Source of the DNA: Archangium sp.
Lineage (GTDB): Bacteria; Myxococcota; Myxococcia; Myxococcales; Myxococcaceae
NCBI GenBank assembly: GCA_047600485.1
Contig: JASGKS010000001.1
Span: 6,656,259 to 6,720,258, forward strand
DNA length: 64,000 bases
Direction: 5' to 3'
This document shows, one piece after another, positions 19,657 to 19,911 of the stretch. The translations under genes were made by a program, and so were the position numbers. The notes beneath the pieces were generated by a model. The model did not search any database. It saw only the letters and a program-made list of their open reading frames with translations, and was not told the DNA's origin. The first letter of the stretch is position 1. Each line of letters starts with the position of its first letter.

Positions 19657-19911
19657 TCAGGGCTTCTTCGCCTTCGGCTTCTCTTTCTTCGGCGGATCAT
19701 CGGGCCCGGGCTCGTTGGGGTTCCGGCCCTCGCTCCATTCCTTCTCGGGCGCTTTGCAGATTCCGAGCGAGTCGCACTTCGTTCCCTTGCAGCACGGCCC
19801 GGGCGAACACGACATGCCGTTGCTCGCGCACGGCTGCCGACGCGGTCGCCACTGAGCGCTCGCGTCGAGCGAGAACAGCAGCGCGAGCACCAACGCCATT
19901 CGCAGCAGCAT
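19657..19911 (-). CDS. small secreted cysteine-rich (C-C-CC-C-C, knottin-like) peptide with Lys/Pro-rich tail
   Basis: Internal Met of ORF 19657..20175 gives [19 protein letters not shown] (signal peptide). The mature peptide is [40 protein letters not shown]...[10 protein letters not shown]. The start lies 2 nt after the mogA stop. Confidence 0.45.

Follow-up and report, generated by a model that had tools for sequence, protein, structure and literature searches.

The great majority of known knottins, which are valued as ultra-stable scaffolds, come from animals, plants and fungi. A small gene of the myxobacterium Archangium sp. raises the question of whether a bacterium encodes an authentic member of this structural class and, if so, what its product could be for. 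The gene is located in a 64,000-nucleotide stretch of contig JASGKS010000001.1 (positions 6,656,259 to 6,720,258, assembly GCA_047600485.1), which we call the window. A preliminary description of this DNA had proposed that a small gene starting at an internal Met, two nucleotides (nt) downstream of mogA, encodes a secreted peptide with six cysteines in the C-C-CC-C-C arrangement of the inhibitor cystine knot (ICK) and a Lys/Pro-rich tail. We find that the peptide gene is genuine, conserved and single-copy, and that its products form a new, uncharacterised bacterial family predicted to belong to a known structural class, the knottins. The coordinates of the gene, of the segments of its product and of the other features of the window are listed in Table 1.

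The program-made list of open reading frames (ORFs) covers this region only with a 172-amino acid (aa) ORF that starts with GTG (19657..20175) and whose N-terminal part crosses the 3′ end of mogA in a different frame. Since the sequences located 5′ of the internal Met are unrelated between homologous loci, this Met (replaced by GTG in some members) is taken as the start codon. The short gene was thus correctly delineated from the outset, its homologues being conserved and under purifying selection. The GC content of the coding sequence (CDS) at the three codon positions (0.58/0.55/0.85) resembles that of the adjacent genes, and the value at third positions (GC3, 0.85) corresponds to the same coding signature as that of the host genome, which is 67% GC. 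The cysteine spacing previously reported, C6C4CC4C5C, is exact in the translation (hit at 19830). This pattern occurs once across all six frames of the window and 0.0 times per 64 kb in Markov-1 random sequences (n = 100), a looser version being found 0.06 times. No paralogue was detected in the window by tblastn, and no Rfam family, promoter-like site or convincing terminator was found around the gene. An identical protein (100%, P0001), labelled 'hypothetical', is present on a 9.4 Mb contig of an Archangium sp. metagenome-assembled genome (MAG).

Table 1. Features of the window, with residue numbers given for the segments of the knottin-like pre-peptide.
Feature	Coordinates	Strand	Basis or remark
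Knottin-like pre-peptide CDS	19657..19911	minus	84 codons and TGA stop at 19659..19657; translation
Signal peptide, residues 1-19 (MLLR / 11-residue hydrophobic core / DASA)	19855..19911	minus	inspection
Arg-rich N-flank, residues 20-27 (QWRPRRQP)	19831..19854	minus	alignments, motif census
Six-cysteine knot domain, residues 28-52	19756..19830	minus	pattern hit, conservation, predicted local distance difference test (pLDDT) 87-88, ICK neighbours
Acidic Pro-rich linker, residues 53-74	19690..19755	minus	alignments, dN/dS, pLDDT
Polybasic C-terminal tail, residues 75-84, net +5	19660..19689	minus	translation, charge calculation
mogA, molybdopterin adenylyltransferase, 176 aa	19914..20444	minus	Pfam PF00994, NCBIfam NF006932
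DUF6683 protein, N-terminal signal-like sequence	18862-19656	plus	converges on peptide gene
Collagen G-x-y repeat protein, 379 aa, lipoprotein-type signal (…LSLAAC)	17633-18772	minus	Pfam Collagen 1.5e-14
Castor/Pollux-type RCK cation channel	10886-13057	minus	Pfam Castor_Poll_mid, Slo-like_RCK, TrkA_N
CAP/SCP-domain (cysteine-rich secretory protein family) lipoprotein	41019-42350	plus	
Long ORF, 2188 aa	44418-50984	minus	no Pfam hit
gyrB and two large Ser/Thr kinases (coordinates grouped)	57846-60317; 15088-17613; 29245-32187	plus; minus; minus	

A first search of 5.8 billion proteins retrieved 16 homologues of 50-85 aa. A profile search led to 56 hits, about 55 of which (homologue clusters) belong to the family and are 71-98 aa long when complete. 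The homologues that the preliminary description suggested looking for in other myxobacteria therefore exist, and all these clusters come from Myxococcota MAGs or metagenomes. The family members have no functional name, and the only organism names attached to them are Archangium, Myxococcaceae or Myxococcota MAGs. The distribution is narrow: a HMMER search of 1.84 billion cluster representatives yielded just seven proteins at E ≤ 0.001, and a scan of one genome for each of the 185,579 species of GTDB detected the family in nine species, all represented by MAGs, with one locus each. For the window protein, Pfam gave nothing at E ≤ 1, and the best Pfam matches across the 16 members initially retrieved were Toxin_29 (E 1) and Toxin_16 (E 3.4), with one member apiece; no NCBIfam model matches the window peptide.

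The family is under purifying selection in the knot and the linker. Pooled from codon alignments of 13 loci, dN/dS is 0.24 in the knot, 0.25 in the linker, 0.69 in the signal peptide and about 1.2 in the tail, and it falls to 0.07-0.08 for the mature region of closely related pairs. When the window is compared with the homologous loci L001 or L003, identity is 94-97% for MogA and Dcd and only 66-84% for the best peptide segments.

The pre-peptide can be divided into five segments (Table 1). Inspection of the first one revealed an Arg in the n-region, a hydrophobic core of 11 residues and an A-x-A motif at positions −3/−1, and this n/h/c layout is kept, with its A-x-A, in all full-length homologues while the signal sequence itself drifts, in line with the signal peptide initially proposed. 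The signal ends with FSLDASA, the predicted signal peptidase I site being located between ASA and QW. There is no lipobox ([LVI][ASTG][GA]C), the first Cys being located nine residues past the predicted cleavage site, and no twin-arginine (Tat) motif was seen by inspection. We infer from these features that the peptide is a Sec-type secretory precursor. Cleavage after ASA19 would release the mature peptide of 65 aa already described, with a predicted mass of 7.1 kDa, a net charge of +6 and a pI of 9.2.

The mature peptide would start with an Arg-rich flank, for which the family consensus immediately before Cys I is (Q)(W)RRxR(R/Q)P. Between the signal peptide and this Arg cluster, some members (P0019, P0021, P0051, P0060 and P0061) have an additional insert, which makes cleavage of a propeptide conceivable. 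Two of these proteins, P0060 (L016 4001-4258) and P0061 (L017 4001-4222), are short, tail-less relatives found in bacterial contexts, in which loop 4 has eight residues (VEEIVGKV) and the stretch separating the signal peptide from the RRxRR motif before Cys I is longer; they may point to a propeptide and to a larger superfamily of knottin-like proteins in bacteria.

In the knot domain, loops 1-3 are near-invariant (ASNGMS, xPGP and xGTK) and loop 4 varies, with four, five or eight residues. The linker that follows contains five positions nearly invariant across the family (P55, E56, W59, P70 and D71); it is predicted to be disordered (pLDDT 54-58) although it is as constrained as the knot, and it is attached solely to this knot domain in the profile search of 5.8 billion proteins. 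In the tail, which has low pLDDT, the composition is kept and the sequence is not; the window peptide has the basic, Lys/Pro-rich character first attributed to this segment, whose net charge is +5. The corresponding values are +3 for the N-flank, +1 for the knot and −3 for the linker.

Several types of evidence point to an ICK-type fold. AlphaFold2 models obtained with the family alignment have a pLDDT of 81-84 for the Cys core of the full-length protein and of 87-88 for the core of the mature form, whose tail is at 54-58. Foldseek searches of the PDB with both models retrieved almost entirely ICK peptides, i.e., TRTX-Tp1a, U1-liotoxin, purotoxin-1 and -6, ProTx-I and -II, omega-Avsp1a, asteropsins and the lobes of DkTx, with template modelling (TM) scores normalised to the target of 0.6-0.77 and probabilities up to 0.98, the E-value never being below 0.18. 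A sequence profile search of the PDB returned five sequences, all of them ICKs, the best being purotoxin-6 (E 0.0096) and asteropsin G (E 0.025). Among 58 family sequences, 52 have all six cysteines, four are N-truncated gene calls and two (P0053, L018 2272-2523, and P0057, from different samples) have lost both Cys II and Cys V; no sequence has lost a single cysteine. P0057 reads ...KGLAPDGIGIC, and both proteins correspond to two-disulfide versions of the domain. Since the two variants are related, this joint loss was probably one evolutionary event; it supports the pairing of Cys II with Cys V predicted by ICK connectivity. A CS-alpha/beta fold, which requires a CxxxC...CxC motif and an alpha-helix packed on a beta-sheet, does not fit the peptide: the sequence lacks both CxxxC and CxC, and its mature part has no predicted helix. 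The ICK framework originally recognised from the cysteine spacing is thus supported by the core pLDDT, by the structural matches to ICK peptides, none of which has a significant E-value, by the sequence matches to ICK peptides and by the fact that Cys II and Cys V were lost as a pair. The prediction with the best support, and a very probable one, is an ICK-type fold with a predicted knot connectivity and threading.

The closest structures, together with those of sponge asteropsins, are those of arachnid ICK toxins (purotoxin-6, 6F61; purotoxin-1, 2KGU; TRTX-Tp1a, 2MXM; ProTx-I/II), which share the C-C-CC-C-C framework and similar loop lengths with the myxobacterial peptide and superpose on its predicted core with TM scores of 0.6-0.77 and an rmsd (root-mean-square deviation) of 1.2-2.5 Å over 30-34 columns. 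The best PDB sequence match, purotoxin-6, is aligned over the segment CATKGIKCNDIHCCSGLKCDSKRKVC. Both types of peptides are made as secretory precursors (as predicted for the myxobacterial one). In contrast with the arachnid toxins, the peptide studied here has a bacterial host, a predicted Sec export to the periplasm and no Pfam toxin model. Its knot lacks the hydrophobic patch and the basic ring of gating-modifier toxins, and it carries a 22-residue acidic/Pro linker and a polybasic tail that are both absent from arachnid toxins. Finally, it is single-copy and slow-evolving, whereas venom families are expanded and diversifying.

The same framework is present in the asteropsins of sponges. 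Asteropsin G (2N3P) begins with QWCAEEGESCEVYPCC, which parallels the QW start of the predicted mature myxobacterial peptide and its xPCC motif (E 0.025). In asteropsins, the N-terminal Gln is cyclised to pyroglutamate, and by analogy the N-terminal Gln of the predicted mature peptide could be cyclised as well. With about 32-37 aa, asteropsins are short; they are also acidic and have no tail, whereas the myxobacterial peptide is cationic, has 65 aa and belongs to a free-living bacterial lineage. For other sponge knottins, the stryphnines, an animal rather than a symbiont origin has been argued (PMC13418204). The myxobacterial family is set apart from all the systems that we compared by its PEKEW...EPGPD linker and its polybasic tail, and by being encoded by a single-copy bacterial gene without dedicated maturation enzymes.

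Taken together, these data are best explained by a Sec-exported, disulfide-knotted mini-protein that acts as a ligand or inhibitor of a foreign target, a reading to which we assign a probability of roughly 0.6 as a whole. The pre-peptide would be exported by Sec and cut by signal peptidase I after Ala19, and Dsb-dependent oxidation in the periplasm would then form three disulfides (I-IV, II-V and III-VI), producing a knottin/ICK core of about 25 residues that carries flexible, charged flanks (the Arg-rich N-flank, the disordered acidic/Pro linker and the polybasic tail). This rigid, protease-resistant knot could act with high affinity, as a ligand or inhibitor, on one conserved extracytoplasmic target that does not belong to the producer. 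Such a target might lie on the envelope of competitors, prey or grazers, or be one of their enzymes or channels. The peptide might be concentrated on anionic surfaces by its cationic flanks (net +6), and the conserved PEKEW...EPGPD linker may provide a second contact or serve as a signal for processing or export. Taken alone, the functional step, i.e., the action as a ligand or inhibitor of a foreign target, is a tentative proposal that we place somewhat below even odds.

Several observations weigh against this explanation or parts of it. A single-copy gene under strong purifying selection in a housekeeping operon fits a self-directed role at least as well, and offensive toxins more often form expanded, fast-evolving families. 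The surface of the knot is almost neutral (+1) and lacks the hydrophobic patch of channel gating modifiers. AlphaFold may merely echo the knottin fold from the Cys pattern, and no cultured organism carries the gene in the GTDB species scan.

The strongest alternative, possible although on balance unlikely, is that the same molecule is self-directed, i.e., that it stays in the periplasm or envelope of the producer, where it would regulate or inhibit one of its own proteins (a protease, a peptidoglycan enzyme or a channel), or that it is a conserved signalling peptide. The presence of one copy per genome (nine loci in nine species), the strong purifying selection with nearly invariant loops and the inferred co-transcription with the housekeeping gene mogA in four species are all consistent with such a role, but the narrow lineage would be unusual for a core envelope function, and polycationic flanks are more typical of peptides acting on foreign anionic surfaces.

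The gene context, which we examined at 13 distinct loci, bears on this alternative as well. No modifying enzyme, transporter, immunity-like gene, protease or other conserved partner was found across these loci, and they share no co-located gene of the kind expected for a precursor of a ribosomally synthesised and post-translationally modified peptide (RiPP) with dedicated maturation enzymes. Envelope-related neighbours that would fit a self-directed role are present in some clades: L012 and L018 have a Peptidase_M15 protein and a beta-lactamase of class A. Other neighbours are RibD_C proteins in L004, L005 and L007, an acetate-kinase-like protein in L011, Cys-rich repeat proteins in L013 and L015, and an ABC ATPase with a short-chain dehydrogenase in L016. 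L001 and L006 both have a 185-aa gene downstream, but these two genes are unrelated, and the 83-aa gene located upstream in L005 and L007 is not Cys-rich. Because no neighbour is conserved across clades, none of them indicates a candidate self-target.

One suggestive neighbour is a channel gene. In L010, an orthologue (84% identity) of the Castor/Pollux-type RCK channel of the window is encoded on the same strand as the peptide, 88 nt downstream (4295-6433, plus strand), which again would suit a self-directed peptide; this pairing is absent in other clades. The channel gene of the window is located 6.6 kb downstream of the peptide gene, and L001 has a channel gene of this type that starts about 5 kb away. 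The genes in between differ, with those encoding the DUF6683 protein, the collagen-like protein, a Ser/Thr kinase and a sigma factor in the window and other genes in L001, so that the stretch between the peptide and channel genes looks like an insertion hot spot.

Genes encoding caspase-like proteins (Peptidase_C14) also recur near the peptide gene, in the window (4492-6609, plus strand), in L001 (7345-8913, minus strand), in L003 (5527-7140, minus strand) and in L014 (about 2302-3800, minus strand), where the gene is the immediate divergent neighbour. Orthology is restricted to the copies of L001 and L003 (69% identity), and the remaining ones are paralogues with 36-40% identity. We therefore treat this recurrence as probably background, all the more since myxobacteria have an abundance of Peptidase_C14 genes.

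A different objection concerns the fold rather than the target: the peptide could be disulfide-rich without being a true knottin, for instance a disulfide-directed hairpin (DDH) or another unthreaded connectivity, its likeness to ICKs being limited to a shared Cys spacing. One of the best Foldseek matches, U1-liotoxin-Lw1a (2kyj), is a peptide that we take to be a two-disulfide DDH rather than a full knot, two natural variants of the family get by with two disulfides, and the Pfam knottin models have no match. However, the hit lists consist almost wholly of ICK structures, with TM scores of 0.6-0.77 over the entire target, the PDB profile matches are exclusively ICKs, Cys II and Cys V are lost jointly as ICK pairing predicts, and the C-C-CC-C-C arrangement with loops of 6/4/0/4/4-5 residues is inside the canonical ICK range. 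We consider an unthreaded structure to be distinctly improbable.

The relationship with eukaryotic knottins raises another alternative. The only matches outside of the family among the 1.84 billion representatives are two fungal-type proteins, P0020 (E 2.5e-7), in which a knottin unit with a Kex2-like KR site is repeated five times in tandem, and P0022 (a hypothetical protein of Rhizophagus diaphanus, RGB35869.1; E 5.6e-4); hhalign gave probabilities of 90.7 and 94.1. The fungal-type repeat unit CNGNGSFCNNGVPCCAGTYCSTSQIC aligns Cys for Cys with the domain encoded in the window, and a basic, cleavage-type motif precedes Cys I in both groups (KR in the fungal type, RRxR in myxobacteria). The fungal-type proteins differ by being a eukaryotic tandem polyprotein or a 121-aa protein, by a loop 2 that is one residue longer and, for P0022, by the absence of Cys VI. 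Common ancestry is not established, because the similarity is largely limited to Cys and Gly. One could nevertheless imagine an authentic bacterial ICK lineage that is evolutionarily linked to fungal-type knottins, by descent or by inter-domain transfer in either direction, and that acts as a toxin with which a predatory bacterium blocks ion channels or enzymes of eukaryotic grazers or fungi, or gates the Castor/Pollux-type K+ channel adjoining it in one species; we view this combination as quite doubtful.

A role in molybdenum cofactor (Moco) biosynthesis was suggested by the position of the gene. The identity of mogA is firm (Pfam MoCF_biosynth, 1.9e-26; NF006932, 277 bits for a cut-off of 158) and the gap of 2 nt reported in the preliminary description is exact: the TGA of mogA (19916..19914) is followed by 2 nt and by the ATG of the peptide gene at 19911 (...GAAGGCGAAGTGAcgATG). 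In the window, L001, L003 and L010, the peptide start lies −1 to +5 nt from the mogA stop, and the arrangement dcd / mogA-peptide is common to the window, L001/L009, L003/L008 and L010. No promoter-like site was predicted between the two genes and, given this and their tight spacing, the peptide gene is likely to be co-transcribed and translationally coupled with mogA in this genome. The adjacency is nonetheless specific for one clade and not a property of the family: no mogA was detected beside the peptide gene by tblastn in L004-L007 and L011-L015, and none of the genes called in L016-L018 belongs to the Moco pathway. The association with mogA is thus an accident of gene order in one sub-clade, and the peptide gene is autonomous.

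It is accordingly very unlikely that the peptide is an accessory of MogA or of the Moco pathway, e.g., a Cys-rich peptide binding a metal or molybdate. The near-contact with mogA in four species and the abundance of cysteines in the peptide would fit a shared pathway, but the nine other loci have no mogA nearby, the signal peptide would direct the product away from the cytoplasm, where MogA works, and the pairwise loss of cysteines is that of disulfide partners and not of metal ligands. This reading is largely refuted by synteny.

An artefact, i.e., a chance ORF in a GC-rich genome or a mis-binned or recently transferred fungal or arthropod sequence, is scarcely credible: the nearest sequences outside of the family are indeed fungal-type and every carrier is a MAG or a metagenome contig, but the gene is located on a 9.4 Mb contig amid bacterial genes and is probably coupled to mogA, its GC3 fits the host, it recurs in nine independent MAG species and many metagenome contigs whose contexts are bacterial wherever examined, and the spurious-ORF version is rejected by conservation and by dN/dS values well below 1, the Cys pattern being unexpected by chance.

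The Sec-exported knottin that we favour would extend what has been reported for bacteria. According to the KNOTTIN database paper, bacteria do have knottin sequences, and 'bacterial knottins' are mentioned there only as a family without experimental structure (PMC5753296), which agrees with the rarity in bacteria initially claimed for this framework. In the literature that we searched, bacterial knottins are limited to such database predictions without structures (PMC5753296), and nothing relevant was found there on knottins or cystine knots of myxobacteria. Like these database entries, which may or may not include it, the myxobacterial family is predicted and encoded by bacteria; its members are MAG or metagenome proteins, mostly deposited after 2017 and annotated only as 'hypothetical protein'. 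A conserved, genomically anchored family without dedicated maturation genes would demonstrate that a Gram-negative cell can make an ICK fold with its ordinary Sec/Dsb machinery, and would offer a natural bacterial scaffold with unusual appendages, i.e., the conserved acidic/Pro linker and the polybasic tail. The practical value is limited for now, every carrier being an uncultured MAG.

A precedent for small eukaryote-like disulfide mini-proteins in myxobacteria is AdDLP, a defensin-like peptide encoded by Anaeromyxobacter dehalogenans (Zhu 2007; Gao 2009; both as cited in PMC5116183). It differs from the peptide described here by its CS-alpha/beta cysteine-stabilised helix and its four cysteines, the peptide of the window having neither the CxxxC...CxC motif nor a predicted helix in its mature part. 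Myxobacterial defensin-like peptides have been discussed as possible ancestors of a eukaryotic peptide superfamily (PMC5116183). With myxobacteria thus already proposed as a source of eukaryotic defensins, the family adds a data point on the origin of the ICK fold, and a link between an ICK lineage and fungal-type knottins, if true, would echo the proposed myxobacterial origin of CS-alpha/beta defensins.

Several other features of the window deserve mention. The gene encoding the DUF6683 protein converges on the peptide gene in such a way that the two stop codons abut (TGA/TCA), with an intergenic distance of zero and no terminator-like structure; no DUF6683 gene was detected in any of the loci L001-L015. 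The neighbouring collagen-repeat protein ends in a non-repetitive C-terminal domain. One of the two large Ser/Thr protein kinases combines an N-terminal zf-HC2 anti-sigma-like finger with TPR repeats and is encoded beside a sigma-70 family gene (14275-15006). Because gyrB is present, the window may lie near the replication origin. In the long ORF of 2188 aa, an internal Met is followed by a lipobox (…LAALSGC), which points to a giant, repetitive surface lipoprotein rich in Thr, Ala and Ser as the true product; several ORFs with high GC3 are located on the opposite strand, so that the coding strand is not certain. Finally, the CAP/SCP-domain lipoprotein contains a Cys-rich N-terminal module (CDATSCPAGCCDLDGECQGGTLRDAC…), the sole other loose match to the knottin pattern in the window, and a long low-complexity linker of the (TGGGG)n type.

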